Shown piece after piece: positions 10,045 through 55,204 of a DNA stretch of 64,000 nucleotides. A program made the translations under genes and the position numbers. Below the pieces are notes generated by a model. The model was given only the letters and a program-made list of their open reading frames with translations. It had not been told where the DNA came from and searched no databases. This DNA is from an uncultured Nitrososphaerota archaeon. Its GTDB lineage: Archaea; Thermoproteota; Nitrososphaeria; Conexivisphaerales; DTJL01. Location: positions 512,459-576,458 of the forward strand of contig CAWJIE010000003.1 of the NCBI GenBank assembly GCA_963842885.1, given 5' to 3'. How positions within the stretch are numbered: position 1 is the stretch's first letter; each line of letters begins with the position of its first letter.

Positions 10045-10254
10045 CTAGACTTCGACCGTGTCCCTATCCTTGGGGTCCAGGGCCTTCTTGAGTTGCTTCG
10101 TGACCCAGTCGGAGTTCTCTTCGTTCTTCAGCTCCCTGGCTGCCTCGTCCCTGGACAGCTTGTCGGCTCTCCTCTGCTCGGCCGTGTAGAGCGTGTGCAT
10201 GTCCTTGTAGGCCACCCTCTTCCCCTTCGTGTCCTCCTCGACTACGGACGACAT
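10045..10254 (-). CDS. Gene B, intact copy (69-aa charged protein of unknown function)
   Basis: MSSVVEEDTKGKRVAYKDMHTLYTAEQRRADKLSRDEAARELKNEENSDWVTKQLKKALDPKDRDTVEV*; TTTAAG box ~25 nt upstream of the ATG, also present at the 54995 copy. Confidence 0.8.
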   Translation of the reverse strand: MSSVVEEDTKGKRVAYKDMHTLYTAEQRRADKLSRDEAARELKNEENSDWVTKQLKKALDPKDRDTVEV

Positions 10255-10384
10255 ACCAGCAATCATGTGGGGTGCCTCCCTTAAAGGTGCACCTATCTTC
10301 TTTCTTGACAATTGGTCATCTAACATGTCCGACGTCTCAACATGGAGGATTCCGATCTCTCTTTCATTGATAAGCCCAGCCTCG
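10255..10384 (-). promoter_or_regulatory. Conserved upstream/promoter region of gene B
   Basis: gcctcccttaaaggtgcaccta...ttgacaattggtca...ttcattgataagcccagc; related sequence at 20631-20732, 20888-21004 and 55205-55348. Confidence 0.7.
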
Positions 10385-10495
10385 CTTGGGCGACCCCTGG
10401 TGACCCCCGGTCGTTTCATGCTCTGTCGTCGCTAATGCACCATAGGTCAACTCCCCGCCAACGCCGGCAGTTATTAGAGAAGTGAGGCTCAGGGT

Positions 10496-11032
10496 TTGCG
10501 CCCAACGGTGATTAGCCTCGACCCTGCCTCCCCGGTGATAAGGAAGCTCCCGCTCGAAGTGCAGTCCGTGCTGGCGAAGCTGACCAGCATCGAGAGGGAG
10601 CTCGTCGAGGAGAGCAGGGAGCACAGCTGGGTGTGGATTGGGGACACAATTGTGGGGCGACTGGTGGGGAGGGACGTCTACACCATGGATTCCTTCGAGC
10701 GCGACTTCCTTCCCTCGGACCCGCCCGCCACGAAGGAGCCCCCTCTCAGGCCGGAGGGGGTGGCGGTGATACCGGGGTTCACCTCCGGGCCATGCCAGCC
10801 CCTCCTGATAGTGGTCATGGGGGCCTACGTCGACCACGAGAAGCTCATACTGCAGACGATCGAATACGTCTCCACCCGCTGCCGGGGGGCGACGAAGTAC
10901 GTCGTCTTCTACGCCATCTCTTGGAACGGCGTGGCCTGGGCCGAGCACAGGGACTCGTTCAGGGCCTCGAAGGCCGTCCCCATCCTGAAGCTGCTGGGGA
11001 GCGAACCCATCGTCCTTAATCCGATGTATTAG
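10496..11032 (+). CDS. Gene A, intact (hypothetical, ~175 aa), divergent from gene B
   Basis: Long ORF ending GSEPIVLNPMY*; its C-terminus recurs three more times in the window. Confidence 0.8.
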   Translation: MRPTVISLDPASPVIRKLPLEVQSVLAKLTSIERELVEESREHSWVWIGDTIVGRLVGRDVYTMDSFERDFLPSDPPATKEPPLRPEGVAVIPGFTSGPCQPLLIVVMGAYVDHEKLILQTIEYVSTRCRGATKYVVFYAISWNGVAWAEHRDSFRASKAVPILKLLGSEPIVLNPMY

Positions 11033-11044
11033 TGATCTGAAGCT

Positions 11045-11178
11045 AGGCGGTATGCATACCTATTACGGGTTCAAGTCTGAATGAGGGCGATACAAGGTAT
11101 TCATAATGTGAACTTGTGACATCAAAGACATCGAGGAATGTTGTCGAGGATTTCGATCATACGCATGCCTGTCTCACT
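11045..11178 (+). repeat. Element E copy 1 (~107-bp core, conserved arms)
   Basis: tacctattacgggttcaagtct ... catgcctgtctcact; arm spacing 108 bp as in the other copies. Confidence 0.7.
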
Positions 11179-11239
11179 CCCTGCCGCAACTCGCCCGGCC
11201 TTCCTAAGCCTGCCCGGAGGAAGGAAGAGATCTGACCGA

Positions 11240-11908
11240 TTAGCTGTATCCCTTCGAAACCAATACGTAGAGGACGTCCGACGCGTCCTCGGCATTGTCT
11301 GACACGTTGTCGACCATGTCGATGAAATCCCTGAGCTGCAGCACGGAGAGGACCGAGACCTTCAGGGTGAATACCAGCTCGATGAGTGTGTCCTTGATGG
11401 AGTCCGCAGCCTCCTCATACTCTTCGACCTCCCGGGCGTACCGCAGGAGCTCCCCGTTCCTCTTGCCAAGGGTCTCGATGGCTTCGCGCAAGGAGGATAC
11501 CGCCTTCACGGTCACGGCCAGGTGTTCCTTGACCTTGTCTCCTATGGGCGCCAGCTCGGAGGCTTCGAGGCGCCTCTGAGTGATTATCTTCCCCGCGGTC
11601 TTGGCGCTGTCGGCCACTCCGTCGACCTTCTCTGCCAGGTTCATGAAGTCCGTGCCAAGGTTGGAGAAGAAGACGCCGTTGGAGAGCATCTCGACCAGGC
11701 GCCGATGGACGTGGTCGGCCTCCGTCTCGGCCTTGTCTATGTCCAGATAAGTGAAGTACGCGGTCTTGGGGTCGCCGGCCATGAGCTCGTCGACGACTCT
11801 TTCCAGAAGGCGCGTCGCCGACAGACTGAGCTCGACGTGGACCATGAGCAGCTCGAGGATCTCCTTCTCTCCCGCGCTGAAAGGATGCAGCCACTTTAGG
11901 GGGTTCAC
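11240..11908 (-). CDS. DUF47 / PhoU-like phosphate transport regulator
   Basis: ETEADHV...EEAADSIK...DNVSDNAEDASD repeats. Confidence 0.88.
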   Translation of the reverse strand: MNPLKWLHPFSAGEKEILELLMVHVELSLSATRLLERVVDELMAGDPKTAYFTYLDIDKAETEADHVHRRLVEMLSNGVFFSNLGTDFMNLAEKVDGVADSAKTAGKIITQRRLEASELAPIGDKVKEHLAVTVKAVSSLREAIETLGKRNGELLRYAREVEEYEEAADSIKDTLIELVFTLKVSVLSVLQLRDFIDMVDNVSDNAEDASDVLYVLVSKGYS

Positions 11909-12091
11909 GGCCGGGATCCTTTGGATTTGTGGTCGGAGACGGCCTATAAATGCCTAGGCCGGGGCACTACTACGGCGCCAGGCCGAAGGTCTCCCTGTCT
12001 CCTCAGACGCCGGCTCGACTGACAGGCTCTCGGAACATTTAATTATCGACCGTCAGCCGAGTTTCTACACTAGGACCGAGATGCTAGTGCT

Positions 12092-13552
12092 TTGGCGTTC
12101 GGAAGGAAGAAGAAGGCGCGAGATTCAGAGGGAGGCCTCGGGGAGGACGCCTATGGTCTCAAGAGGGAGATCGGGGTCTGGGGCTCCTTCAGCATGGGCT
12201 ACGCGGACGTCGGCGCTGACGTCTATGTGGCCCTGGGCATCCTCGCACTCTACGCCCACGCCTACGCGCCAATCGCCCTCCTGATCGCTTCAATCACCTA
12301 CGTCACGACCGGCCTCACCTACGCCGAGCTGGCCACTCGCTACCCGGTGGCGGGCGGGGGTCACTTCTACGCCTTGAAGGCCTTCGGTCCCCTGCACGGC
12401 TTCCTGGCCGGATGGGGCCTGATGCTCGACTACACCATAGACATAGCCCTCTTCGCCCTGGCGTCCTCGGGCTACCTCGGTGCCATAGTGCAGGTAGTCG
12501 CCCACACGGACATCCTCCTGCGGCCTCCCTGGTACAGCATCATGGCGGTGGTGGTCATCGTGGCCCTCCTCCTGTTGAACATCGTCGGCATACGCTACTC
12601 GTCGAGGTTCAACGAATTGGTGGTGGCGCTCAACATCGTCACCTTCCTGGTGATAATCCTGATCGGCTTCTACGTCGCGTATCTCGCCGGGGGCATCTCC
12701 TCCTGGACCTCCCAGTTGGAGCCGGGCTACATGGGGACGTCCAGCTTCGCCTATTCGCTCACCCTGGCCATGGCGTCCTTCATCGGCATCGAGTCCATCT
12801 CGCAGGCCGCCGAAGAGACGAAGACGCCGAACAAGGTGATCCCGAAGTCCACGAAGCTGTCGATAGTGGCGGTGCTCACCATAGCCCTGGCCCTCAGCTT
12901 CCTGTCCGTGAGCCTGCTGCCGTGGCAGACGACGGCCAACTCCTCCCAGAACCCGCTCTTCGTCATAACCGCCGCGTTCCCGCTGATAGGAGGAGGGCTG
13001 GCCGCCTGGGTCGCGATCAACGGGTTCTTGATGTGTGCGGTGTCCACCAACACTGGCGTCATAGGCGTGTCGCGCGTCACCTTCTCGATGGGCCGGCTGA
13101 ACCTCACCCCGCGGGTATTCAGCAAGATACACAGGCGCTTCAGGACACCCTACGTCACCATAATACTGTTCTCGGGCGTCGCCGCCTCGATCCTGCTCTT
13201 CAACATATTCCTGCCTGGCGACGAGCTCCTCGACCTGGTGGCCTCCCTTTACAATTTCGGGGCCCTCATAGCCTACCTCTACGTGAACCTCTCGGCCGTC
13301 GCGCTGAGGTTCAAGGAGACGGAGAAGGCCGATTCATACAAGACGCCCCTCAACTTCGGGGTGAACTACCATGGAAGGACGGTCAGGGTTTCGCTCGTCT
13401 CGATCATCGGCGTAGTCTCCTGCGCGGCCATGTGGGTCATCCTGGTCTGGACCCATCCGCTGGGGAGGATCGTCGGCTTCGCGTGGTTCGCGGTGGGCAT
13501 CGTGATGTACTTCCTGTACAGGAGGGCCAGGGGCCTCCAGGTCCTGAGGTGA
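12092..13552 (+). CDS. APC family amino acid permease
   Basis: YAELATRYPVAGG, FIGIESISQAAEET, IHRRFRTPYV; ~12 TM. Confidence 0.93.
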   Translation: MAFGRKKKARDSEGGLGEDAYGLKREIGVWGSFSMGYADVGADVYVALGILALYAHAYAPIALLIASITYVTTGLTYAELATRYPVAGGGHFYALKAFGPLHGFLAGWGLMLDYTIDIALFALASSGYLGAIVQVVAHTDILLRPPWYSIMAVVVIVALLLLNIVGIRYSSRFNELVVALNIVTFLVIILIGFYVAYLAGGISSWTSQLEPGYMGTSSFAYSLTLAMASFIGIESISQAAEETKTPNKVIPKSTKLSIVAVLTIALALSFLSVSLLPWQTTANSSQNPLFVITAAFPLIGGGLAAWVAINGFLMCAVSTNTGVIGVSRVTFSMGRLNLTPRVFSKIHRRFRTPYVTIILFSGVAASILLFNIFLPGDELLDLVASLYNFGALIAYLYVNLSAVALRFKETEKADSYKTPLNFGVNYHGRTVRVSLVSIIGVVSCAAMWVILVWTHPLGRIVGFAWFAVGIVMYFLYRRARGLQVLR

Positions 13553-13662
13553 TGGAGATGGAGGCCACGGGATCGTTGAGCCACTCCTCCGCACTCGGCC
13601 CATCGACGGCACGAGACAAAAACATAAGAGCCTCTCCTTCGCATTCACTAGACAGAGAGACC

Positions 13663-14535
13663 GTGGGGGAGAAGGCGATCGAGTGGGGTTGGAGCGACAG
13701 CCCCATCATATTGCCCCTGGCCTTCGACAGCAGAGAATGGAACGCCGCCTACATCGCGGCCCACGTCGCCGAGTGTTGCGGTGCGACCCTGGTCGTCTTC
13801 CATGTGAGACCGAAGGGAGAGCGAATCGACACTGGCTTCAAGGCGGAATTCGATGATCTAATTTCGACCCTGAAGATAAAGCACGAATACGAGGAGAAGG
13901 AGGTCAAAGGCGAACCCCCATTCCAGACCATCGCCGAGCTCATAGTCCGCGAAGTGGAGACTCGGTCGGCGCAGGCCGTCATAATGGCCGCCCACAAGGA
14001 GGGTTTCCTAGTGGGGAGGGTCTCGGACAGGGTGGCTCGTATGAACAGGGCGAGGACGGTCCTCGTGGAGACCCCGCGACGGGAGACCAGGATGGCCGAG
14101 CACCCGAAGAAGGTCCTCGTCCTCGTCAAGGAGAAGACCAAGCCCAGCGACGCGTTCATCCTAGCGGCGGCGCTGACCTCCCTCGCGACGACGAGGGACG
14201 CGGAGCTCGTGGCGGCACAGGCCATCATCCTCCCTCCCACCGTGCCCCTCGAAGCGATCGAGTTCTCCGACACCTTGAAGGAAGCGGAGAGGGAGTTCGC
14301 CTTCGTGGTGGGCGACAGCATTCGCTCGCTGGGGAGGATCTTCACCCCGCGAGTCCTTGTGTCTCGTGAACTGGGGAGGGACGTAGGAGAATTCGCCGTA
14401 TCGGAGAGGATAGACCTGATGATCCTCACCGGAAGGGGAGCGCGTGACTTCACAAGCCTATTCGGCAGAGACACCACCGACATCGTAAAGAACTCGCCCT
14501 GCGTCGTGCTCGTGGTCTTCCCGCAACGCGCCTAG
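13663..14535 (+). CDS. Universal stress protein (tandem USP domains)
   Basis: C-terminal part of ORF 12412-14535: AVIMAAH...LVGRVSDRVAR; IDLMIL...FGRDTTDIVKNSPCVVLVV. Start uncertain (GTG 13663). Confidence 0.8.
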   Translation: MGEKAIEWGWSDSPIILPLAFDSREWNAAYIAAHVAECCGATLVVFHVRPKGERIDTGFKAEFDDLISTLKIKHEYEEKEVKGEPPFQTIAELIVREVETRSAQAVIMAAHKEGFLVGRVSDRVARMNRARTVLVETPRRETRMAEHPKKVLVLVKEKTKPSDAFILAAALTSLATTRDAELVAAQAIILPPTVPLEAIEFSDTLKEAEREFAFVVGDSIRSLGRIFTPRVLVSRELGRDVGEFAVSERIDLMILTGRGARDFTSLFGRDTTDIVKNSPCVVLVVFPQRA

Positions 14536-14655
14536 GCTTCGAGGATGTTCGGGTCCTTCGGGTCCAGGACCTTCTTGAGCTGCTTCGTGACCCAGGCGGA
14601 GTTCTCTTGGTTCCTCAGCTCCTTGGCGGCCTCATCCCTAGAAAGCCAGTCGGCC
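14532..14655 (-). repeat. 3' fragment of a divergent gene B allele
   Basis: ADWLSRDEAAKELRNQENSAWVTKQLKKVLDPKDPNILEA*; its stop overlaps the USP stop. Confidence 0.88.
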
Positions 14656-14711
14656 GCGGGTCCCCTCCACAAAGTTAAGATAGGAATCCGAAACCATCTT
14701 TCTCTGACGGC

Positions 14712-16337
14712 TTGCCCGAGATAGAGGTAAAGGGACTCTCTTTCACGTATGAGAACCGTTCGGAGCCAGCCTTGGCCGACGTCAACCTGAGCATCGGTAG
14801 TGAGGAGTTCGTCCTCGTCGCCGGTGCTAGCGGGTCGGGAAAGTCCACCTTGATAAAATGCATCAACGGTCTCATACCGCACCGGTACGTCGGCAGCTAC
14901 TCCGGAGAGGTGGCGATCAGGGGAAAGCCTGTGGCCTCTTCGCTGTTCCTAGAGCTTTCGCTTACCGTAGGGACCGTGTTGCAGGAGACAGACAAACAGC
15001 TAGTGGGCTCAAAGGTGGAGGATGACATAGCCTTCGGCCCCTGCAACCTCGCCCTCACCATTCCGGAGGTCGAGGAGCGGGTCACAGCTAGCGTGCAGTC
15101 CACGGGGATGGAAGGCCTCCGGGGGCGCTCCATCTTCGCCCTTTCGGGAGGGCAGAAACAGAGGCTGGCCATAGCCGACACTTTGGCCATGCGGCCCGAC
15201 ATCATTCTCTTCGACGAGCCCCTCGCCAATTTGGACTCCAACGGCGTCAGGCTGATGCAGGAGGTCTTCAGGGAGTTCCACCGGCAGCACAAGACAATCA
15301 TCGTCTCCGAGCACAGGACGGAGGAGGTCCTTCGCGCTGGGCCCACCAGGGTCGTCGTAATAGACAGGGGTCACATAATGGCCGACAGCAGAGACCCGGC
15401 CGTCCTCATTCAGTTCGCCGACGTGCTGAAGGTCCCCGCAAGCTACGCCCTCAAGAACGAAGAGGTGAGGGAGAACCTTCTGCGTGCGACCAGTGCGCCC
15501 GCCATCGCGGCGCCCCAGGCCTCCCAGGAGCTCATCAGGGTCGAAGACCTGAGCTACGAATACCGAGGAGGGGTTAGGGCCCTCGACCACGTCAGCTTCT
15601 CCATCCGTGACGGAGAAAGGCTGGCCATCCTTGGAAACAACGGAGCGGGCAAGTCCACCCTTTCGCTCAACATGGTCGGGATACTCAAGCCCACCTCCGG
15701 CAGGGTTCTGATTAACGGCAAGGACACTCGTCAGATGGAGGTTTCTGAGATCGCAAAGTGGATGGGCCTCGTCTTCCAGGATCCCTTCTCCATGCTGTTC
15801 GCCAAGACGGTCTATGACGAGCTCGCCTTCGGGCCTAAGAACATCGGCGCGAAAGAAGAGGAGATCAGGAGCGTCGTCCCCGAGGTGGCGAAGCAGTGCC
15901 TGATAGACCACCTCCTGGACAGGTCACCCTTCGCCTCCAGCTATGGCGAAAAGAGGAGGATAGGGGTGGGCTCCATCCTTACCATGAAGCCTCGTTGCGT
16001 CATCCTGGATGAGCCGACGGCGGGTCAGGACTACCGGAGCTATTCGCATTTCATGGATTTCATAGGCTCGCTGAAGGGGAGGGTGAGCGCTTCTGTGGTC
16101 ATCACTCACGACCCCGACCTGGCGATAGAATACACAGACAGGGCCATCGTCCTGGGGGACGGGCGCGTGGTGGCCGATGGTCCCACACGGGAGGTGTTGG
16201 CAGACCCCTCCATCCTGTCGACCTGCGCCATCCGGGAGACCTCGCTCATCGAGCTCTCCAGGGAGGTCACCGGGGGGAGGAGCGTGCTTGGGCTCCGACA
16301 GCTGGCGGAGGCCCTGGCGAGGCGGGGAGAGGGTTAA
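14712..16337 (+). CDS. ECF transporter ATPase, duplicated ABC domains
   Basis: Two Walker A motifs (GASGSGKST, GNNGAGKST), LSGGQKQR, DEP. Confidence 0.95.
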   Translation: MPEIEVKGLSFTYENRSEPALADVNLSIGSEEFVLVAGASGSGKSTLIKCINGLIPHRYVGSYSGEVAIRGKPVASSLFLELSLTVGTVLQETDKQLVGSKVEDDIAFGPCNLALTIPEVEERVTASVQSTGMEGLRGRSIFALSGGQKQRLAIADTLAMRPDIILFDEPLANLDSNGVRLMQEVFREFHRQHKTIIVSEHRTEEVLRAGPTRVVVIDRGHIMADSRDPAVLIQFADVLKVPASYALKNEEVRENLLRATSAPAIAAPQASQELIRVEDLSYEYRGGVRALDHVSFSIRDGERLAILGNNGAGKSTLSLNMVGILKPTSGRVLINGKDTRQMEVSEIAKWMGLVFQDPFSMLFAKTVYDELAFGPKNIGAKEEEIRSVVPEVAKQCLIDHLLDRSPFASSYGEKRRIGVGSILTMKPRCVILDEPTAGQDYRSYSHFMDFIGSLKGRVSASVVITHDPDLAIEYTDRAIVLGDGRVVADGPTREVLADPSILSTCAIRETSLIELSREVTGGRSVLGLRQLAEALARRGEG

Positions 16338-16373
16338 TTAACGCAAAGCGCCCATGCATAACAGGGGACTGTT

Positions 16374-16964
16374 TTGGGAGCACCGACGACGGGAACTGCT
16401 ACACCTCAGCCTAGGGAGTCGCTCTTTTCGGCCAAGCAGATCGTAGCCATGGCACTGGGCACCGCACTTTACGCTGGCCTTACGATACCCTTCAACGTCC
16501 TTCAGATACCGGGCGTGGGCTTGATAGCTATCAGGCCCACCATCGCCATCCCCATCATCTTCGGAATCGTCTTCGGCCCCGTCACTGGCTTCGTGGTAGG
16601 CTTGCTCGGGAACTCGATCGCGGACGTACTCTCCTTTGGTGGCTTCTTCTGGAACTGGGACCTCGGGAACGGGATAATCGGGCTCGTCGCAGGCGTCGGC
16701 TTCTACATCATCGCCCGCCGACAGTGGGCGAAGGGCAGGGGCCTCACCATGGCACTCGTGCTGTCCGTAGTCGCTTCGCTGGTGGGCATAGGGTTCGCCG
16801 CGGTTACGGACTACATATTCTCGATCGGCCTCAATACGTGGGGGGCGGCGCTGTCTGAGTTCTACACAGCCGGTGGAACGGACGCGGTGAACGGCGCCAT
16901 CCTGGTTCCGATACTCCTCTACGCGTACGCCACGGCCACAGCCGGAAGGGCGAGAAGAGTGTAA
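16374..16964 (+). CDS. ECF transporter S component
   Basis: Hydrophobic, FGPVTGFVVGLLGNSIAD...WNWDLGNGIIG. Confidence 0.88.
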   Translation: MGAPTTGTATPQPRESLFSAKQIVAMALGTALYAGLTIPFNVLQIPGVGLIAIRPTIAIPIIFGIVFGPVTGFVVGLLGNSIADVLSFGGFFWNWDLGNGIIGLVAGVGFYIIARRQWAKGRGLTMALVLSVVASLVGIGFAAVTDYIFSIGLNTWGAALSEFYTAGGTDAVNGAILVPILLYAYATATAGRARRV

Positions 16965-16985
16965 TGGCGCATCATCTGATGCACA

Positions 16986-17794
16986 ATGACAACGATCAGG
17001 AACTTCCCAGGCAACACGTTCCTACATAGGCTGGACCCACGAAACAAGTTTTTTCTGATCCTCCTCTACATATTCATAGAGGTGACCTTCACCGACATCA
17101 GGGTCCTGGTCCTCCCCTTCGTGGCCTCCATCATCCTCTACCTGTCGGCCAAGATACCTTTCAAGGAGGTCAAGTCCTCCTGGAAGTTCCTGCTCACGAT
17201 CATCGTAGTCATATCGACGGTGAACGCGCTATTCACCCTCCTCGGCGCCAGCGTCGCGCACCCCCATGTCATCGCCAGGTTCTGGGTCCTCACGCTCACG
17301 GAGGAAGGGGCCTTCTTCGCCCTGGCGGCCCTGATGAGGTTCATGTCCGTGGCCATCATAGCTATGACGGTCATCTTCACCACCGAGCCGACGCTCTACG
17401 CCCCAGCCCTTGCCAAGCTGGGAGTCCCCTACAAGGGAGCCTTCGTGGTGGACCTGGCGCTCCGCTACCTCCCCACCTACGCGAATGAGCTCGATACGAC
17501 CCTCAACGCCCAGATGGCCAGGGGCTACAAAGCCAGGGCCAAGGGGGGTTTGAGGGCGCGCATCATCAACACCATTCCGCTGCTGGTCCCCGTCGCCGTA
17601 GGCGCCATGCTCTCCATCTACGACGTGGCCGACGCCATGGAGCTTCGGTCGTTCGGGGCCATGAAGCACAGGACATGGTACAGGGAGGTCAAGGCTAAGG
17701 GATCGATTACGCCGCCTTCGCGGTGATCGCGATACTTCTGGTGGTGGCGATCTACCTCCGCACCCGGATCACTACCTATTGGATACCCAGCTAG
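16986..17794 (+). CDS. ecfT: ECF transporter T component (apparent frameshift at ~17700)
   Basis: LHRLDPRNK, AQMARG, AMELRSFG. Adding one G to the run at 17699-17701 restores a final TM helix (IDYAAFAVIAILLVVAIYL...IPS*). Confidence 0.88.
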
Positions 17795-17814
17795 GTCGTA
17801 CCTTCGTCCGGCTG

Positions 17815-17865
17815 GCGTCCCCGTCCTTGGGGTCCGAGCCGGTGATACTGAACCCTATGTACTGA
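17815..17865. repeat. Fused scar: gene B 3' piece (17815-17835, minus) joined to gene A 3' end (17836-17865, plus)
   Basis: gcgtccccgtccttggggtcc|gagccggtgatactgaaccctatgtactga (EPVILNPMY*). Confidence 0.8.
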
Positions 17866-17872
17866 TGGCCTG

Positions 17873-18232
17873 TCAGCCGTACATGTCTTTCTGCTTGATG
17901 TCCTCTCTCATCTTCGTGACCGTTTCCTGAGCGGCCTCCTCCTTCATGCTCTCGACTATGAAGTTGGCAACCTCATCGGGGTACCTGTAGAAGAGCTTCT
18001 CCACGCCCGACCATAGGACGCCCGAAGATTCCGAGTCGACCCCTCTGCCGCCGGTGACCAGCGTCCTGAGCATGTCGCTCATCCCCTGGGCGATGATGAG
18101 GCCGAAGTACCCGTCGTCGTCCAGCTCCTCGCCCATGAGCTGGTCCGCGATGGCCCTGAACGCCTTCACGAGTTTTGCGTCCCTCTCCGGGAGCTTGAAT
18201 TCGAACCGCGTTCCTTCTGATTCCTGGCCCAT
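17873..18232 (-). CDS. Hypothetical protein
   Basis: ORF 17873-18316, probable start MGQESEG. Confidence 0.65.
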   Translation of the reverse strand: MGQESEGTRFEFKLPERDAKLVKAFRAIADQLMGEELDDDGYFGLIIAQGMSDMLRTLVTGGRGVDSESSGVLWSGVEKLFYRYPDEVANFIVESMKEEAAQETVTKMREDIKQKDMYG

Positions 18233-18354
18233 ATCACACTCATAATCTAAGTGACCCTCCGTTCCATTTCTATGTTTCGGGAGTACCCCATGTTCCAAGA
18301 GCACGGTCTTAATCAATGCCGCTCGTCATGGACCGTTCGGGGCCTGCCTGCAAG

Positions 18355-18465
18355 CTACACTTCGACGGTGTCCCTGTCCTTGGGGTCCAGGGCCCTCTTC
18401 TAATCGGCTTGGTAGACTGTGTGCATGTCCTTGTAGGCCACCCTCTTCCCCTTGGTGTCCTCCAC
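18355..18465 (-). pseudogene. Gene B copy with an 84-bp internal deletion and a nonsense codon
   Basis: VEDTKGKRVAYKDMHTVYQAD*KRALDPKDRDTVEV*. Confidence 0.88.
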
Positions 18466-18608
18466 CAACGTCGCTCGGAGGGTCGTCTTCGGTCATTGCC
18501 ACCCGGGGAGGAGGCGCACTCTCCTCCTCCCCAACACTCAATGCCACCGTTAAGGCCCAGGATACCCTGCACTCGTCCTTCAAGTCCCCCCGGGAAAAGT
18601 GGGGGAAA

Positions 18609-19307
18609 TCATGACTGCCGCGGCGGATGAGGCCTTCTGAGGATCTCCAGTACCTCTTCGTCCGTCAGGTCATACCAGTTCCTGTAGGCATCGGCGACCG
18701 CGAAGGACGGCCCGCTCCTTGTGTTCAAGCACACTATCTCGTCCACCTCAGACGCAAGCAACTCAATGGCGGCCGAGGAGCCAGTCGGCGCAGCGATCAC
18801 CAGCCGTTTGGGCATTTCCTTCCTCACGGACCTCGCCGCCGCCAGCATCGTGTAGCCCGAGGCCAGACCATCGTCGACTATGATGACCACCTTGCCTTTG
18901 AGTCGGGGGAGGGGTCGACCTCCCCTGAACTTTCTGAGCCTTTCTTGGATTGTATCCCTCGTCTTTGAAATGCATTCCTTCATCGTCCTCTCCGAAAGCC
19001 CCAGGCGTTCGACCAGAGGTAGGTTGAGGATGATGTCGCCGTCGAACGACATGGCGCCGAACCCCGATTCGGTAGTCCACGGCAACTGAATCTTCCTGAC
19101 CACGATCACCTCCATCGGGATGTCGAGCTCCGTCGCCACGACATCTCCCACGGGAGCACCTCCAGCCGCGGCGGCCAGGACCAGAGCGTCGCCGCGCGCC
19201 GCGTATTGCCGCAGTTTCTTCGACAGAAGCACGCCGCCGTCCGTCCTGTCTTCGAACACGAACGTCCGTTCCCTGAGAGATATCTCTTCAGTTACCTTGG
19301 CGGTCAA
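18609..19307 (-). CDS. Phosphoribosyltransferase family protein
   Basis: FEDRTDGG, VVRKIQLP, VIIVDDGLASGYTM PRPP-binding loop. Confidence 0.92.
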   Translation of the reverse strand: MTAKVTEEISLRERTFVFEDRTDGGVLLSKKLRQYAARGDALVLAAAAGGAPVGDVVATELDIPMEVIVVRKIQLPWTTESGFGAMSFDGDIILNLPLVERLGLSERTMKECISKTRDTIQERLRKFRGGRPLPRLKGKVVIIVDDGLASGYTMLAAARSVRKEMPKRLVIAAPTGSSAAIELLASEVDEIVCLNTRSGPSFAVADAYRNWYDLTDEEVLEILRRPHPPRQS

Positions 19308-19562
19308 GGGCGGGCATGGCGATGATGGACGACGCCGGATATATCAGCAATTCCTCGTCCCAGGGAGGCGAGTCTCCAAGTTGGACTCGCAGAAGAAGAG
19401 ATTCCGGTGAGGCTGAATCCTGAGACCGGCATGCGCCTGAGCGGCGCACCACTCCAATCACCGCATTGACGAAGGCATACACCTGTCATCCAGCAGACCC
19501 GTCTGTGCTACGATGAGCGACAGAACAGAAGGGATGCTCAGAGGTAACACGCTCCCTTTCCG

Positions 19563-20351
19563 TCAGTCATGTCGGAGAGCGAGTTGAACCCTCATCCTGA
19601 GGCCGTTCATCACCTCGTCGTTGTTCCTTAGGAGAAACAGGTCGGCCTCCAACGATGCGGCTTCGCGGTCTTCTGTCACTTCTAGAACTGTCTCGCCAAG
19701 CGATTCGAGAGCCGACTCTTTCCCGACCGGCATATCGCTTGACAAGACGTTGGCAGGCAAGAGGATCTCTCCTGAGAGCAGGGCTCTCCTGACAATCTCA
19801 ACTTGGTCGTGCGTCGTAATCCACGATTTCGACACTTCGCGGAAGAGCTCCTCCAGGAAGTCAAGGAACTCTCGTTCGACGACGAGGGTGAGCAACTCGT
19901 TGGGCTCTACGGCTCTCAGTAGCTGATAGTCGAGGCCATAGCGCATGAGATCATTGCGAATGCCGGTGAAGGCCGCGCTCAGTTTGGCGTCAGATGCCTC
20001 CTTGTACGTCGGGGCGGCCCCCTGGTCCTCCTTGATCCGCTCGCGATACTCGGTGAGGTCGCGTCGCCAGCTCTCAAGTTCGCGAACGTGGAGGATCAGT
20101 TCAGTGAGTATCCCTCTCCTGAAGGCCTGATACTCGTTCGACTGCTTCGTCATCCAATAACGAGATCGCTTGCCCGGCTTGCCGCCGCCCTCCTTTCTCA
20201 CTTGGCTCTGCCTTACGAGTGCCTGGAGGTGCTTGTTCACATGCACAAACGTAACCTTCGACTTGAGTGCCCTGCTCAGTTGACCGAATGACTCCCCTTC
20301 AGGGTGCTTGGTGAGCTCCTCTAGGATCAGGCTGTCCACGTTCTTGCCCAA
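19563..20351 (-). CDS. Hypothetical protein with N-terminal winged-helix-like region
   Basis: ILEELTKHPEGESFGQLSRAL...VNKHLQALVRQSQVRKE...RYW. Confidence 0.65.
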   Translation of the reverse strand: MGKNVDSLILEELTKHPEGESFGQLSRALKSKVTFVHVNKHLQALVRQSQVRKEGGGKPGKRSRYWMTKQSNEYQAFRRGILTELILHVRELESWRRDLTEYRERIKEDQGAAPTYKEASDAKLSAAFTGIRNDLMRYGLDYQLLRAVEPNELLTLVVEREFLDFLEELFREVSKSWITTHDQVEIVRRALLSGEILLPANVLSSDMPVGKESALESLGETVLEVTEDREAASLEADLFLLRNNDEVMNGLRMRVQLALRHD

Positions 20352-20437
20352 TACTAACTCGCGATACTAACCCAGATTGCTGTATTAATAGGCGTCTAGG
20401 CGACTTATTGGCATTTGCAACAAAGGCATCAGAGAAA

Positions 20438-20629
20438 TCATGGTCGGGGGTCCAGGGCCTTCCTCAGCTGCTTCGTGACCCAGTCGGAGTTCTCTCCGTT
20501 CTTCAACTCCCTGGCCGCCTCGTCCCTGGACAGCTTGTCGGCCCTCTTCTGCTCCGCCTCGTAGAGGGTGTGCATGTCCTTGTAGGCCACCCTCCTCCCC
20601 TTCGTGTCCTCCTCGACGACGGACGACAT
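20438..20629 (-). CDS. Gene B copy lacking the last codons (ends ...ALDPRP*)
   Basis: MSSVVEEDTKGRRVAYKDMHTLYEAEQKRADKLSRDEAARELKNGENSDWVTKQLRKALDP. Confidence 0.8.
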   Translation of the reverse strand: MSSVVEEDTKGRRVAYKDMHTLYEAEQKRADKLSRDEAARELKNGENSDWVTKQLRKALDPRP

Positions 20630-20771
20630 ACCAATTATGATGTTGCGAGCCTCCCTTGATGGCGCACCTTCCTTATTACTTGACAATCGGTCACCTAACG
20701 TATACAACGTCCCAACGCAGAAGACTTCAGACTTATATATTCAGGTCGCACACCATTTTGATGAAGGAAAA

Positions 20772-20887: not shown

Positions 20888-21004
20888 TGGAGCCTACGTC
20901 AAAGGCGTACTCTACCTTCTTTCCTGACGATTGGTCAGCTGACATAGCTGACGTCCCAGCATAGACGGTTCCGATTCCGCCCTTCATTGATGAGCCCAGC
21001 TTCG
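20888..21004 (-). repeat. Second copy of the gene B upstream region
   Basis: taccttctttcctgacgattggtcagctgac...ttcattgatgagcccagcttcg aligns with 10271-10384. Confidence 0.75.
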
Positions 21005-21039
21005 TAGCACATGCTTTTCAGTGAGCTCGTGCATATCCA

Positions 21040-21582: not shown

Positions 21583-21599
21583 CTCCGAATCAGGCTTCG

Positions 21600-21772
21600 C
21601 GTTCATCTTGGTGGGTTTCGTGCGTCTAGTCCTGATGATGGCGTTGATCGGCTTCCTGCTCTGCCCGCCGTTCTGGCTCTACGGCATCTACGACATATAT
21701 GCGTCCGCGAAAAGAATCAACGCCAGCACACTAAGACCTGACTGACCATAACTCTAGGGAAGCAAGCTGGCG
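21600..21772 (+). pseudogene. 3' fragment of the Zn-ribbon/TM2 gene plus ~27 nt of downstream sequence
   Basis: FILVG...LIGFLLCPPFWLYGIYDIYASAKRINASTLRPD*; colinear with 43466-43638. Confidence 0.88.
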
Positions 21773-27404: not shown

Positions 27405-27492
27405 CTAGACTTCGATGGTGTCCTTGTCCTTGGGGTCCAGGGCCTTCTTCAGCTGCTTCGTGACCCAGTCGGAGTTCTCTCCGTTCTTCAGC
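27405..27492 (-). repeat. Gene B 3' fragment (88 bp)
   Basis: LKNGENSDWVTKQLKKALDPKDKDTIEV*. Confidence 0.92.
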
Positions 27493-27791
27493 ATCACCCC
27501 GGCGGCTTGTAGCCGCCTTCGGTCGTGTTATGGTCGGTCGCAGCCCTCCTGAAAGAGCTCGAAGGCCTCACCGTTCAGATAGAGATAATGCCTAATCCCA
27601 AGCGGGCCATCTGGATTGAAACCACAAGATCTATCGTCGACCGGCGATCTTGGCAGCTTCCGTCATGCACAGAGTGTACTCCTTTCTCGCTCCCGCTTTG
27701 AAGAAGACGGTGTCCAACGTGGCTTCTCCTTCCTTCGGGAGAGAAGCTTTGAGATTCTTCAGAAGCGGACGGCTACGGTTAATAGGTTGGA

Positions 27792-28265: not shown

Positions 28266-28316
28266 CTAGACTTCGACTGTGTCCCTGTCCTTGGGGTCTG
28301 GGGCCTTCTTCGGCTG
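28266..28316 (-). repeat. Gene B 3' fragment (51 bp)
   Basis: ctagacttcgactgtgtccctgtccttggggtctggggccttcttcggctg. Confidence 0.9.
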
Positions 28317-28348
28317 GCCCCAAATCGGGAGATGGGGGGTTTCAGTGC

Positions 28349-32660: not shown

Positions 32661-32829
32661 GGGGCCGGGCGATATTAGTACCTATTACGGGTTCAAGTCT
32701 CAAAAAGGCGATGTAAGATATGCAAGATAGATGCGCGTCTATTTCAATACAATATTGGATTTGCTGACAAAACATGCGTTATTCTCATACCCGTTTCATT
32801 GGGGGCCGCGTCAACAACCACACGAGTCG
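32661..32829 (+). repeat. Element E copy 3
   Basis: ggggccgggcgatattagtacctattacgggttcaagtct...ttattctcatacccgtttcattgggggccgcgtcaacaaccacacgagtcg; arm spacing 108 bp. Confidence 0.85.
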
Positions 32830-42895: not shown

Positions 42896-43002
42896 TTAGA
42901 CTTCTACTGTGTCCCCGTCCTTGGGGTCCGGGGCCTTCTTCAGCTGCTTCGTGACCCAGCCGGAGTTCTCCTCGTTCTTCAGCTCCTTGGCAACCTCGCC
43001 CC
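42896..43002 (-). repeat. Gene B 3' fragment (~107 bp, TAA stop)
   Basis: EVAKELKNEENSGWVTKQLKKAPDPKDGDTVEV*. Confidence 0.92.
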
Positions 43003-43128
43003 CTCTCAGAGGCGCGGCCTGAGGGCATGGCATGTTCGGCTGACGGGACTGTTTACGAGTTAGTGTCCATCGCAGCCGCGGCAGCAAGCTCTCAACGCTT
43101 TAATAGGAAAGAGACCTCAGTTGACATA

Positions 43129-43611: not shown

Positions 43612-43681
43612 CCATACCTGCAGAGGAGCAGGCTGGCGCGGAACGGGAGCGCCCCACCGACCTCGTGACTGGAAGGTTAGG

Positions 43682-44221
43682 TCAGACTTTGGTATAGATG
43701 CCCTCGAGGCAGTACACCGTCAGCTTCCCCGGGACAGGGCATTTTGTTCCCAAATCGCATCTGGGGCAGAGCGACTCGGGCGTTACTTCAAGAGTGCCGC
43801 CATTCGCGTGCAGGGAATAGAGTAGCTTCAGGTACTTCCCTTCGGCTACTCTGGGAAGATCGTCCCGCCTTTCGAGGCCGTACCACTCGTAGAGCCTCTT
43901 GGCTCCCTTGCTCGAGTTGCAACCCTGACAGATCCATATGGCGTTGTCAGGGACGTCCGGGCCGCCGCGAGCCGTGGGCAGTATGTGTTCCAAGGAGAGA
44001 TGCGCCTTGGAACAGCAGTAGACGCAGGAGCCGCTGGCTTCGTGCTCCTTTACATACTCTCTTATGGACGAAGACCAAGCGATGTCACCCGACTGCAGCT
44101 TCTTGAACCGATTCATTATGAACCGGTAATTCTCCTTCCCCTCCCCCGCGGACTCCGAGATGATCTTCGCGTACTGCCAGAAGATCAAGTCCCTGATGGT
44201 CCTGACAGCCGGTGGTGGCAT
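43682..44221 (-). CDS. HNH endonuclease
   Basis: CVYC...EHILPTARGGPD..DNAIWICQGCNSSKG. Confidence 0.88.
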   Translation of the reverse strand: MPPPAVRTIRDLIFWQYAKIISESAGEGKENYRFIMNRFKKLQSGDIAWSSSIREYVKEHEASGSCVYCCSKAHLSLEHILPTARGGPDVPDNAIWICQGCNSSKGAKRLYEWYGLERRDDLPRVAEGKYLKLLYSLHANGGTLEVTPESLCPRCDLGTKCPVPGKLTVYCLEGIYTKV

Positions 44222-44329
44222 GACTACATTGAATGCAGGACCATGGCATAAGGGTTGCACCCGTATGCGAGGGGACCATTCCCTCAAGTAGGCTAGACGA
44301 TCATGGCTTGCATCCTTGTTCTACGTCTG

Positions 44330-44351
44330 CTAGACTTCGACGATATCCTTG
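44330..44351 (-). repeat. Gene B 3' fragment (22 bp)
   Basis: ctagacttcgacgatatccttg (KDIVEV*). Confidence 0.7.
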
Positions 44352-45529: not shown

Positions 45530-45560
45530 CTAGACTTCTACGGTGTCCCTGTCCTTGGGG
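45530..45560 (-). repeat. Gene B 3' fragment (31 bp)
   Basis: ctagacttctacggtgtccctgtccttgggg. Confidence 0.88.
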
Positions 45561-45604
45561 CTCAGAAGGCTCAATAGAAGAATTCAGTACGGCTTTCACA
45601 GGCC

Positions 45605-47986: not shown

Positions 47987-48196
47987 GAGTCACTTCATTC
48001 CTTTGTGCCGGACAACATCAACCTGTTGCCAAGACGGAGATGAATGGTTGAAGTCGCAAATAAGCCTGCCCATAGGACATCCCTGCGACGAGCCTTCACT
48101 GCACAAGTCATGGATGCGCGGCTAACAAGTCTCAAATTACAAACAAGGCCTTCTAGCTCCCATTGAGGCTCTCAACCGTTGCAACGAAATCCGGTG

Positions 48197-48233
48197 GGCC
48201 CTCTTCCACTCTGCCTCGTAGAGCGTGCGCATG
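48197..48233 (-). repeat. Internal fragment of gene B
   Basis: ggccctcttccactctgcctcgtagagcgtgcgcatg. Confidence 0.75.
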
Positions 48234-49208: not shown

Positions 49209-49302
49209 TTCGCTCGTACTTGTTCCCGATTCGTTGGCCTAGGCTCTTAAGCCTAGCGCGTCAGTGAGGACCTGAGTCTGTCAGACCATCACGACGTCGT
49301 TT

Positions 49303-49354
49303 CATCCTGAAGATGCTGGGCTGCGAGCCGGTGGTGCTGAATCCCATGTATTAG
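49303..49354 (+). repeat. 3'-end fragment of gene A
   Basis: ILKMLGCEPVVLNPMY*. Confidence 0.88.
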
Positions 49355-50404: not shown

Positions 50405-50570
50405 GGACCGGGCGGGCTCTAAACCTGAACGGGTTCAAGTCACTAAAATTGGATGTAAAATCTTCAAAGTAGAATTAAATTATTACTACTATGACTATAG
50501 TTTGTATACAAAACTTGTGTTATTCTCATACCCGTTTCATTGGGAGCCGCGTCAACCACCGCACGAGTCG
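50405..50570 (+). repeat. Element E copy 4
   Basis: acgggttcaagtc...acaaaac...ttattctcatacccgtttcattgggagccgcgtcaaccaccgcacgagtcg; arm spacing 107 bp; abuts a gene B fragment. Confidence 0.85.
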
Positions 50571-50630
50571 CGACGGTGTCCCTATCCTTGGGGTCTAGGG
50601 CCTCCTTCAGTTGCTTCATGACCCGGCCGG
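50571..50630 (-). repeat. Gene B near-3' fragment
   Basis: cgacggtgtccctatccttggggtctagggcctccttcagttgcttcatgacccggccgg. Confidence 0.88.
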
Positions 50631-50694
50631 GACAGGAACGCAGGATGAGAATCGCCGTCGCGGAAGCGCAATGAACCCTAGCAAGGCCCAGATC

Positions 50695-51707: not shown

Positions 51708-51994
51708 ATACAGATGAGCTTGAGAAAGTAATGACCTTGAATTACAGTCAGGTTTTCCAGGAGATGCTCCTATCCGCCTTAAAGAGCCATCCGAAGTTGA
51801 CGCCTGATTATCTCTCCCAATCGGTTGCTCGTCAGAGAGAGATTGAAGAGGAAATAAAGGAGCGGTCAAGCAAAATGGCGGTTGCACTTGTCGGCAAACT
51901 GAAGGCGAAGGGCTACTTAGCTGACGAACCACCGGACGACGTATTGAAAGGTTTGATTCTAGCTATTATGCAAGAGTTCGGGGTGTCTCAATGA
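51704..51994 (+). CDS. Hypothetical helical protein
   Basis: ATGA overlaps with both neighbours. Confidence 0.75.
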   Translation: MNTDELEKVMTLNYSQVFQEMLLSALKSHPKLTPDYLSQSVARQREIEEEIKERSSKMAVALVGKLKAKGYLADEPPDDVLKGLILAIMQEFGVSQ

Positions 51995-53358: not shown

Positions 53359-53364
53359 CTCGAT

Positions 53365-54544
53365 TCATTGTTTCTTAAGGTATTCAGAAAACAGTGGATG
53401 AAACAAGGAGTATTTCCCCCTGCCATATCGCACTAGAAACTCTTTCCTTTCAAGCCTCGAGAGTAACACCGAGGCGCCGCTGAACCGCGGGAAATCGCTT
53501 GGTGAAACGAGTGAATCTTCGGTTTTTGCGATTTCGATCAGCAGTTCCCTTTCTCTCTCCGTGGCCGACCGCATCTTGTCAGCGAAGATAGTGTCAGCTA
53601 AGATGTCTCCGATGCCTAGGCCAGACCCTTTGAAAATCATTCTCCCCGATTGCTCCTGGTCCCCTAAATTGATTCATCATCTCGTACATGACGAGCATTA
53701 TGAGATACGGATGACCTACGGTCTTGCTTACGATCCTCCTGATGACGACATCCTCAACGGTGGTCTTACTGCCCACCAGTTGCAGCCTGACTTGGATAGC
53801 TTCCTTGGCTTCATCGAACGTAAAGGGTTCGAGTTTGTAACGCCTGAAGAACCTTAGAGTAGGCTCGGCCAATCCAGCAATTTCGGCAAACAACGATGAG
53901 GGCGCAGTAACAACCAATGAATAATTACATCTTCGGTTCACTAGTTCTTGGAAGGTTGTCTTCAGATTAAGGTAGGAGGAGTCCTCTGTCCTTATCGAAA
54001 AATAGTGAAGGTCATCAATGAGAACGAAAGCAATCCTCGCTCCTGATGGCTTAAGAGAATCATTCCAGAAGTCTTCGAGTGCCTTGGTGATGCTGGATTC
54101 TTCCTCTTCGGCCCTCCTACTGGCTCCAACGACACCTAGATTCAGATTGACATCCCATCTCCTAGCCTCTCCGGCAATCTTGGTTTTGTAAGTTGTGCTT
54201 GCCACAGTCCTTAACCTGCGTAGGAAATCTGTAGTGAATGCGTCCCAGTCTTTACCATACTGTGGTGACAATGGATAGTAGATGCAGGCACCACGCATTT
54301 CCTCCTTAAGATCTTCCAAGACTATCTGCCTGAACTTATACAGCAGAGATGTCTTTCCTTCTCCCGATGTTCCAAGTATGGCATAATTCACAGGAGTGGG
54401 GATTCGTAGCCTGGCGGAGTTAAGCGCCGTCGCCCTGAAATCGTCCAGGTATCTCTTCCTATCCGCAAAGTACTCTGGCTGGGCTGGATGCTGTGGGGAG
54501 AAGGGGTTGAGGCTATTATTTCTGTTATGATTGTTATTTGCCAA
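53365..54544 (-). CDS. AAA/STAND-like P-loop ATPase with C-terminal wHTH (frameshift ~53617)
   Basis: NPF...YFADR, GTSGEGKTSLL, VLIDD, GHPYLI; second frame ends LLSRLERKEFL..GRGKYSLFHPLFSEYL. Confidence 0.82.
54516..54539. repeat. 24-bp direct repeat copy (ttatttctgttatgattgttattt)
   Basis: One mismatch to 54684-54707. Confidence 0.85.
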
Positions 54545-54550
54545 CTCTCT

Positions 54551-54682
54551 CTACCTGTTAAGCCTGTACCGTTGGATTTTGGCGATTCCGTGGCAGGCCT
54601 TGTGAATCAAACGACCTCCGTAATACATCCCTTCCCCTTCGTAGACTTTCCTCCCACAAATGGCGCAGGTCTTGTAGCCCAC
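54551..54682 (-). CDS. 43-aa LIM-like zinc-finger protein (missed by the ORF track)
   Basis: MGYKTCAICGRKVYEGEGMYYGGRLIHKACHGIAKIQRYRLNR*; tttttaaaa box ~23 nt upstream. Confidence 0.7.
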   Translation of the reverse strand: MGYKTCAICGRKVYEGEGMYYGGRLIHKACHGIAKIQRYRLNR

Positions 54683-54683
54683 G

Positions 54684-54713
54684 TTATTTTTGTTATGATT
54701 GTTATTTTAAAAA
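54684..54713 (-). promoter_or_regulatory. TATA box plus 24-bp repeat (candidate operator)
   Basis: tttttaaaa-taacaatcataacaaaaataac-GTG on the minus strand. Confidence 0.6.
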
Positions 54714-54994
54714 CCTTGCCCATAGGTGGACTCGTTCAAGATAGCACAACTGTTCGAAAGGGCGAAGACATTCCGCTCGAACTGAGAGGTGAACTGAGTA
54801 TCTTACCCTGTTCTTCCGACTGTTGAATAATCGATTTCAGAATGTCTTGAAACATCCTAGCAAAACCTCCGTATTACCAAGAGTCTACTAGGAGCCGTCC
54901 AATGGGGGTCCGAATCGTCGGAACCCGCTAAGCTAGGCAAGACGCCTGATGTTCGACGCGCCTGACTCGAGGACCGTCAGGTTCTCCCTATCGT

Positions 54995-55204
54995 CTAGAC
55001 TTCGACGGTGTCCCTGTCCTTGGGGTCCAGGGCCTTCTTCAGCTGCTTCGTGACCCAGTCGGAGTTCTCTCCGTTCTTCAGCTCCCTGGCGGCCTCGTCC
55101 CTGGACAGCTTGTCGGCCCTCTTCTGCTCGGCCTCGTAGAGCGTGTGCATGTCCTTGTAGGCCACCCTCTTCCCCTTCGTGTCCTCCTCGACGACGGACG
55201 ACAT
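54995..55204 (-). CDS. Gene B, intact copy (69 aa)
   Basis: MSSVVEEDTKGKRVAYKDMHTLYEAEQKRADKLSRDEAARELKNGENSDWVTKQLKKALDPKDRDTVEV*; TTTAAG 25 nt upstream. Confidence 0.82.
   Translation of the reverse strand: MSSVVEEDTKGKRVAYKDMHTLYEAEQKRADKLSRDEAARELKNGENSDWVTKQLKKALDPKDRDTVEV

Follow-up and report, generated by a model that had tools for sequence, protein, structure and literature searches.

Why does one small protein-coding gene recur, whole and in pieces, along tens of kilobases of an archaeal genome? The question is raised by a stretch of 64,000 nucleotides (the window, that is, the whole stretch of DNA analysed here) forming the terminal part of a 576-kb contig, CAWJIE010000003.1, from an uncultured Nitrososphaerota archaeon. 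The host is a peat archaeon and belongs to the little-studied, non-ammonia-oxidising Nitrososphaeria; it is represented by a metagenome bin of 11 contigs and 2.03 Mb (87% complete, 2.2% contamination). Here, whole and broken copies of a gene of 210 nucleotides, designated gene B (69 codons followed by a TAG stop), separate the accessory and defence blocks of an island of at least 67 kb, whose cargo comprises transporters, oxidoreductases, DNA-repair helicases, and Hma and Qat-like defence genes; the array of copies ends 9 kb short of the contig end. A preliminary description had taken the copies for independent alleles shaped by protein-level selection, acquired serially from different donors and not by local duplication. 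With slightly better than even confidence, we propose that they result from repeated single-crossover recombination at B followed by decay of the spare copies, so that the B coding sequence would serve as the recombination anchor of a hypervariable accessory and defence island in this genus.

Segments of B were mapped with nhmmer in the whole 2.03-Mb assembly; the profile was built from 17 intact alleles, 15 of which come from other genomes. Twelve segments were located in the window, with E-values from 1e-4 to 8e-68, and a further stub of 21 nucleotides (nt) at 44330 emerged from the alignment with two relatives; all thirteen lie on the minus strand. Upstream of the window, the contig carries four additional segments, likewise on the minus strand. 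All 17 B matches at E ≤ 0.002 fall within 85 kb of this one contig and on one strand, and the rest of the assembly contains zero B matches with E < 0.01. The segments in the window are as follows.

3348..3405, minus strand: inner fragment of B, nt 59-116
10045..10254, minus strand: whole B, divergent from the whole copy of a second gene, A; homology with the 20447 copy extends to 10341; the downstream flank is an acetyl-CoA synthetase gene
14532..14655, minus strand: B stub, nt 87-210, ending in PNILEA and a stop; the most diverged of the stop-keeping stubs (19 of 123 nt from the nearest allele)
18355..18466, minus strand: B copy with nt 15-90 fused to nt 165-210 and an internal stop codon
20447..20629, minus strand: B nt 1-183 only, the last 8 codons being replaced
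27405..27494, minus strand: B stub, nt 121-210, with 2 nt differences from the 54995 copy
28266..28325, minus strand: B stub, nt 151-210
42896..43004, minus strand: B stub, nt 102-210, ending in TAA; synteny with the sister species breaks at its 5′ edge
44330..44350, minus strand: 21-nt B stub encoding KDIVEV and a stop, about 42 nt upstream of the listed TTG start of an HNH endonuclease frame
45530..45565, minus strand: B stub, nt 175-210
48184..48233, minus strand: inner fragment of B, nt 54-103
50571..50628, minus strand: B fragment, nt 145-202, without the last 8 nt, adjoining a repeat designated D11
54995..55204, minus strand: whole B, 69 codons and TAG, lying 5′-most in the array; most stubs have it as their nearest allele, and about 70 nt upstream of it are homologous to the other long copies

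Hence two copies are whole (10045 and 54995, the latter frame encoding 69 residues), one lacks the last 8 codons (20447), one is internally deleted and keeps its stop (18355), six are 3′ stubs with an intact stop codon (14532, 27405, 28266, 42896, 44330 and 45530), and the remaining segments are doubly cut. The preliminary description had missed that seven fragments are cut at the 3′ side also, as well as the 3′ loss of the 20447 copy. Its reading of the last codons was accurate: threonine is ACG at 10045, ACC at 18355, 45530 and 54995 (and also at 27405) and ACA at 28266 and 42896; valine is GTC, GTA (42896 and 45530) or GTG (the last valine of 18355); the stop is TAG everywhere except for TAA at 42896; and the peptide variants RDTVEV, KDTIEV (27405), QKRA and QRRA, together with the PNILEA end of 14532, were all recovered. 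The variant KDIVEV, listed there without a coordinate, was traced to the 21-nt stub with its TAG at 44330-44332. According to the nhmmer edges, the truncation points range from nt 15 to 190 for the 5′ starts and from nt 37 to 202 for the 3′ ends; they are spread across the whole gene and thus do not indicate a single crossover site. A preferred breakpoint near codons 55-62 was considered and dismissed on account of this scatter. The 27405 and 20447 copies share 59 nt at 98% identity and were considered as the halves of one split gene; this idea was likewise dropped, both being equally close to the 54995 copy. The exact 3′ end is kept by seven stubs and the 5′ end by one in the source genome, the corresponding numbers being about five and four in the sister species (genome G048).

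Gene B is a real, strongly conserved cellular protein gene, with products of 69-73 residues. A search of 5.8 billion proteins gave 52 candidates, of which 46 are relatives at E ≤ 0.001; most of these are 69-73 residues long and 80-96% identical, and none is named or has a Pfam domain of its own. Among 301 sampled genomes of the class, B is present in 14: the source genome, all four others of the genus and all nine genomes of one other family, in which it is single-copy and 45-50% identical, with the last nine residues almost unchanged. The pooled ratio of nonsynonymous to synonymous differences (pN/pS, by Nei-Gojobori counts) of 17 distinct intact alleles is 0.24. Pfam, PHROGs, NCBIfam and PADLOC assigned B to no family, the best match of a profile search against the PDB had an E-value of only 0.72, and the best ESM Atlas score, 0.82, was under the usable level; the AlphaFold model has a mean predicted local distance difference test (pLDDT) value of 59.5. 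There was no match among 72,556 plasmid records. In a viral collection, 11 stretches encode a B relative, possibly from the source genome or one very near to it. In addition, in the predicted metagenome protein P0044 (106 residues), an N-terminal portion of a type IB topoisomerase (PF02919) is fused to the final ~35 residues of B; in other populations, too, B stubs thus adjoin broken core genes.

We then compared the flanks of the copies. A self-comparison of the region revealed that homology between copies continues for at most 3 nt past the stop codon in every pair, and that upstream homology of 70-90 nt exists only among the three long copies. Likewise, alignments between the alleles of different species cover the 210-nt coding sequence and nothing beyond it. 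Segmental duplication therefore does not account for the copies. To this extent the earlier statement that they are not local duplicates is borne out.

The codon pattern indicates constraint. Over the codons covered by stubs, pN/pS of the 17 intact alleles is 0.27 (bootstrap confidence interval 0.18-0.38), compared with 0.44 for the source-genome copies against the resident 54995 copy, 0.47 for all pairs of source-genome copies and 0.54 for stub-stub pairs only (n = 46; bootstrap confidence interval 0.34-0.86). The synonymous share of the differences from the resident copy is 0.39, against 0.22 expected (p 1e-5) or a conservative 0.30 (p 0.02). With 14532 set aside, the long copies and stop-keeping stubs have 13, 32 and 55 differences at codon positions 1, 2 and 3, mostly at the third position (intact alleles: 972, 982 and 2510), whereas the doubly cut or outlying fragments have changed evenly (52, 56 and 59), and the doubly cut ones are clearly decaying. 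An even spread over codon positions together with a ratio near 1 had been named in the preliminary description as evidence that would speak against selected alleles; the ratio is below 1, yet the positions of all copies pooled are almost even (201, 282 and 260). Its claim of protein-level selection is thus supported in part. Moreover, 364 of 416 stub codons occur at the same position in the 15 intact alleles from other genomes. Private stub codons led in 13 cases to a residue known in intact alleles and in 39 to a new residue or a stop, close to the neutral site ratio of 3.9, indicating that the private changes are near neutral. As judged from these counts, the variation among the copies appears to be largely that of working alleles, overlaid by neutral decay, and the codon statistics fit functional alleles that later decayed neutrally.

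These statistics do not extend to the origin of the alleles. Since a stub decaying beside a constrained resident gene gives a ratio of about 0.6, dN/dS cannot separate a foreign allele from an old resident one. Most stubs are closest to the resident 54995 copy, alone or in a tie. In a maximum-likelihood tree of 22 long B sequences, 15 of 19 inner branches are without support, and forcing the three long source-genome copies into one clade costs 10.3 log-likelihood units and is not rejected (approximately unbiased, AU, test, p 0.06). The copies differ from one another by 2-20%, and no gradient of divergence away from the intact copy was detected (rho 0.16, p 0.57). Serial horizontal acquisition from different donors is therefore unproven.

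The B borders were compared with those in related contigs. The features concerned are:

10342..20446, no strand: 10.3-kb segment between two direct B repeats (10045 and 20447), absent from the metagenome contig L042; its cargo is gene A, a PhoU-like gene, a permease-Usp gene, stub 14532, an ECF transporter, stub 18355, a phosphoribosyltransferase gene and open reading frame (ORF) 262
20935-21606: ORF223, the conserved upstream neighbour of the 20447 copy

The first 1948 nt of L042 correspond to window positions 22394 to 20447 (98.3% identity), comprising Bax1, ORF223 and B up to nt 183, and its nt 1679-2646 correspond to window positions 10341 to 9374 (94.9%), comprising B and the acetyl-CoA synthetase gene. 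The overlap holds one whole, mosaic B between ORF223 and the synthetase gene. Its counterpart in the window is B nt 1-183, then 10.1 kb, then a B with 90 nt of upstream homology, and the insert of 10.1-10.3 kb is bounded by a direct repeat of 270 nt with 87% identity (10072-10341 versus 20447-20716). The difference is best described, from the alignment, as a probable Campbell-type indel bounded by B repeats. An empty site that aligns across the repeat was found for this one unit; the contigs L041 and L046 differ from the window by other rearrangements. L041 contains B, the ECF transporter block, a fragment of B and the ORF147 block, in an order that corresponds to the window's after circular permutation. 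In the sister species, the blocks recur with 81-95% identity but are rearranged over at least six contigs; several of the breaks carry a B or A stub, and at least one stub/flank junction (ORF147 with 18355) is shared with the window. A further repeat of 176 nt, 83% identical, occurs at 21597-21772 (after Bax1) and at 43463-43638 (inside the zinc-ribbon gene block); because the Bax1 block of G048 continues straight into its zinc-ribbon block, this repeat is another rearrangement point.

At loci with a single intact B (genomes G065, G095 and G060, and the metagenome contig L057), neighbouring genes switch sides of B, as seen for HMG-CoA reductase in L008 versus L057 and for a ParB-like gene in L009 versus L010. 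Such a pattern is expected if, of two flanking copies, not the same one is lost in every case. A protein of about 340-355 residues with a ParB_N domain is encoded 0.2-3.3 kb from B, on either side, in three genomes of the genus (L010:6044-7075, L009:5629-6654 and L060:14387-15454). Contigs of the public runs also contain joints that go back from one B copy to another; they were discarded as evidence for circles or deletions, as they sit in repeats at 92% likeness.

No known recombinase accompanies these rearrangements. Phage_integrase (PF00589) has five matches in the genome, none of them in the array and the nearest more than 100 kb away, and in four relatives none of the ten matches is on a B-bearing contig. 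The resolvase family PF00239 has a single match, on another contig, and the Cas1 family of casposases (PF01867) has none in the 87% complete assembly. Pfam scans of 115 ORFs of the window and 117 ORFs around B elsewhere detected none of these families; the mobility-type genes in these scans are just two TnpB-like genes, one rve fragment and one DDE transposase. The same scans assigned no ORF in 10342-20446 to a methyltransferase or restriction family.

Taken together, these results suggest the following course. DNA carrying B, often with the divergent gene A, would be gained, lost or moved by single-crossover (Campbell-type) recombination between B sequences, the incoming DNA being either small replicons or circles released from an array of the same strain or of a related one. 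Every such event would leave two direct B copies around the incoming block. As only one copy is needed, the spare ones would decay by deletion and point mutation, and the outcome would be B (and A) stubs at the block borders, all of one kind on one strand. The uniform orientation, with B always on the minus and A always on the plus strand, corresponds to the direct repeats that Campbell integration predicts, and homology would stop at the coding sequence because only the protein is conserved. Circular intermediates, a homologous rather than enzyme-directed crossover, the order of events and cell-to-cell transfer are the parts that we infer.

Several observations weigh against this proposal. 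Homologous recombination is inefficient between stretches of 50-270 nt that are 85-95% identical. The L042/window pair, the only clean pair of occupied and empty sites, reads equally well as a deletion between existing repeats. The block identities to G048 are compatible with vertical descent and rearrangement, and a foreign origin is unproven. The same is true of circle junctions, the short-read joints in 92%-alike repeats being possible assembly chimeras. The asymmetry of seven kept 3′ ends to one 5′ end is not predicted by random decay and hints at a directed process or at selection on the flanking cargo. Moreover, a recombinase of an unfamiliar family could hide among the unannotated ORFs (A, ORF379 and ORF223).

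Gene A, the frequent partner of B, is present in four pieces in the window, all on the plus strand.

4530..4598, plus strand: 3′ stub of A, nt 469-537 of 537, at a synteny break relative to the sister species
10496..11032, plus strand: whole A, 178 residues, divergent from B (10045)
17827..17865, plus strand: 3′ stub of A, last 12 codons, between the ECF block and ORF147
49278..49353, plus strand: 3′ stub of A, nt 462-537

Eight relatives of A are known, the window protein included; the gene is absent beside B in three of five genomes. Four B-A pairs can be recognised in the window, and in all three decayed ones the inner parts, namely the spacer and both 5′ ends, have given way to 1.0-3.2 kb of unrelated DNA; the unit that repeats may thus consist of the pair together with cargo. 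The inner DNA was also considered as diverged A and rejected as such: in tblastx and tblastn comparisons with the eight family members, only the last 12-26 residues match. Neither Pfam, PHROGs, NCBIfam nor PADLOC contains a family for A; a profile search of the PDB gave 0 hits, Foldseek nothing at E ≤ 0.001 and the ESM Atlas no usable match. The structure model is of middling confidence (pLDDT 66). In VIA-align it reaches Z scores of 7.0 with EcoT38I (partial), 6.7 with BstYI, 6.2 with OkrAI, 6.1 with BglII and 5.6 with BamHI, values below the Z of 8 under which, for this tool, matches among unrelated folds are common. BstYI, OkrAI, BglII and BamHI are aligned over most of A (for BstYI, 137 aligned residues at a root-mean-square deviation of 5.5). 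The model bears only a weak resemblance to a restriction-endonuclease fold.

Two further features adjoin the copies.

43682..44287, minus strand: HNH endonuclease gene (PF14279, E 6e-10)
32661..32829, plus strand: longest copy of the repeat D9-D11, the others lying at 11039-11103, 30257-30302 and 50429-50570; four copies, in the source genome found in this array only

An HNH homologue or fragment follows shortly after the B stop (an estimated ~26-45 nt) in three of the five genus genomes (G000, G095 and G048), the copy in G095 being frameshifted. Along with the fold likeness of A, this adjacency provides leads for a nuclease-driven variant, not findings. The D9-D11 repeat measures up to ~170 nt and contains an invariant core of 13 nt that resembles a tRNA T-arm; the copy at 11039-11103 lies directly behind the A stop codon, and relatives carry the repeat on several contigs. 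It was considered as a tRNA attachment site and discarded, as ARAGORN predicted no tRNA in the window and no Rfam family reached its gathering score; at E ≤ 1 the sole Rfam match was STAXI with 14.5 bits. The B fragment 50571-50628 looks inserted in one copy of this repeat relative to the 32.8-kb copy (32829-32832), with similar sequence on both sides.

Which other processes might have produced the array? Elements with a tyrosine recombinase may have targeted the 3′ end of B and supplied a replacement end, re-use of the site pushing older stubs downstream before the integrases were lost. In agreement with this, the homology of seven stubs ends exactly at the stop and is followed by different sequence in each, the whole 54995 copy is the 5′-most of the array, and there is precedent in Thaumarchaeota, where 14 of 68 integrated elements have a protein-coding gene, in its 3′-distal part, as their target and repeated use of one site is known to give arrays (from parts of Krupovic et al. 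2019, PMC6563490). However, an integrase gene or fragment is absent from the array and from all B-bearing contigs of the five genomes, the 5′ edges of the stubs do not converge on one core, whole or 3′-cut copies (10045 and 20447) lie inside the array, and the 270-nt repeat of the resolved indel covers the 5′ part of B instead of its 3′ end; we consider this course unlikely. Similarly small is the chance we would give to old duplicates, copied locally before the split from the sister species and occasionally converted from the working copy, with no outside DNA involved. The position of the resident 54995 copy as nearest or tied-nearest allele of most stubs, the single clade of the three long copies that the AU test leaves standing, the ratio of ~0.6 expected for decay beside a constrained gene, close to the observed 0.44-0.54, and the ORF147/18355 junction shared with G048 all agree with it. 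Yet flank sharing never exceeds 3 nt, unlike in segmental duplication, the stub-stub ratio is still below 1 although both partners are non-functional, and the blocks between the copies are mutually unrelated and reordered in relatives.

A nuclease might instead be the driving force, a break at or near B by A or the HNH enzyme being repaired with foreign or ectopic DNA. In its favour are the HNH gene or fragment behind the B stop in three of five genomes, the alignment of the A model with BstYI, OkrAI, BglII, BamHI and, in part, EcoT38I (Z 5.6-7.0), and the swapped inner parts of all three decayed pairs; however, Z scores in this range are common for unrelated folds, Foldseek, the PDB profile search, Pfam and PADLOC contribute nothing for A, its model has a pLDDT of only 66, just three B copies have an HNH neighbour (one of them frameshifted), and A is absent beside B in three of five genomes, which makes the idea distinctly improbable. 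In its extended form, the B-A pair might be a self-contained, integrase-free archaeal gene-capture platform, in which A, as a putative small nuclease of restriction-endonuclease fold, would cut in or beside the pair with help from HNH at some copies, and break repair would then bring in B-carrying circular or foreign DNA and build a one-directional array of accessory and defence blocks, integron-like but of different chemistry; this we regard as quite doubtful. Finally, strain variants could have been joined at the shared B during metagenome assembly. The bin is of metagenomic origin with the completeness and contamination given above, the array lies close to the contig end, and the contigs of relatives often break beside B. 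Against this, several of the same stub/flank junctions (synthetase/10045, ORF147/18355, ORF262/20447 and 27405/28266) are spanned by contigs with 92-99% similarity to the window, which come from three studies and four public runs, and read depth is even along 20 kb. The best holders among public sequencing runs carry 0.40 of the sampled words and so represent related strains, not the source strain; as these strains carry several of the same junctions, the array is not an assembly artefact. In line with the preliminary description, a collapse of reads is also contradicted by the difference of 2-20% between copies. The same type of array occurs in the independent genome G048, and an artefact is hardly credible.

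The cargo shows several features of its own. An Hma-type defence system (56767-62813) lies directly upstream of the intact B at 54995; its HmaA is an SNF2 helicase with a NOV_C end (match E 5e-210), and HmaB, a DUF1156 methylase, occupies two overlapping frames (60104-60913 and 60822-62813), probably owing to a frameshift. A QatC-like (QueC-like) protein is encoded beside an AAA/STAND-like ATPase (51991-53358 and 53594-54544) between two B copies; it matches QatC of NCBIfam with E 8e-21, below the cut-off, and that of PADLOC with 6e-19, and the two genes may form a Qat-like defence set. An amino-acid permease frame (12092-13552) overlaps a frame with two Usp domains (12412-14535) in another reading frame, so that 12092-14535 is probably a single frameshifted permease-Usp gene; its stop codon overlaps that of the opposite-strand stub 14532. 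A frame of 86 residues (42526-42786) adjoining stub 42896 matches only the first third of a ribonuclease III domain and looks like a gene fragment. Sequences of 45-70 nt at 34630-34705 and 35015-35083 have 80-100% identical copies on many contigs of G048, G065 and G095 and may be small dispersed repeats or resemble miniature inverted-repeat transposable elements.

Flexible islands hold much of the strain-level gene variety of microbes. The island cases compared here are fed by integrases at tRNA genes; in the present island, the borders are remnants of a small protein gene, and a known recombinase was not detected. If plain homologous recombination is at work, strains can exchange genes by way of a short and very conserved gene that acts as landing pad; if a nuclease is the driving force, the mechanism of capture would be new. 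In both cases, the stubs offer a practical marker with which such islands can be located in metagenomes and their layers dated. Among the papers listed by a topic search of the literature on Conexivisphaerales and on thaumarchaeal integrated elements, there was no description of gene B or of the array, which is not proof of absence.

How does the array compare with known systems? Integrons consist of an IntI-type integrase, attC hairpin sites and one-directional arrays of cargo. The B array shares with them the one-directional succession of unrelated blocks, a recurring recombination sequence and orders that vary as if by way of circles; it differs in that no IntI-type integrase was found, the recurring sequence is a protein gene, and the blocks contain several genes in both orientations. 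The HNH gene or fragment adjoining a conserved B in three genomes is, at the level of gene order, reminiscent of a free-standing homing endonuclease.

The integrated elements of Thaumarchaeota, as far as they are covered by the relevant parts of the survey (PMC6563490), carry an integrase or casposase and are bounded by short att sites or target duplications with a median of 17 bp. The B array resembles them in the phylum, in the protein-gene target, in that element sequence can replace the end and stop of the gene, and in stacked insertions. Unlike them, it has no integrase or casposase that we could find, coding repeats of 21-270 nt, edges anywhere in the gene and whole copies within the array; att-like direct repeats of fixed extent were not observed at the unit ends, where the B edges are scattered. 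Tycheposons of Prochlorococcus, according to parts of a preprint (10.1101/2020.12.28.424599), target tRNA genes and contain tyrosine recombinases, whole or fragmented. Their islands likewise combine a conserved target with an adjoining hypervariable island, newcomers that push older insertions inward, scattered partial targets and accessory or defence cargo; here, by contrast, the target is a protein gene and a recombinase was undetected. Restriction-modification units, finally, can insert without an integrase and with a long target duplication, as described in parts of Furuta et al. 2010 (PMC2853133). The insert studied here is without a recognisable restriction-modification pair, its target is used repeatedly and its host is an archaeon; in all other respects, namely an indel of less than 20 kb, direct repeats of more than 30 bp, a single-copy target and no mobility gene, the L042/window pair corresponds to this type of insertion.

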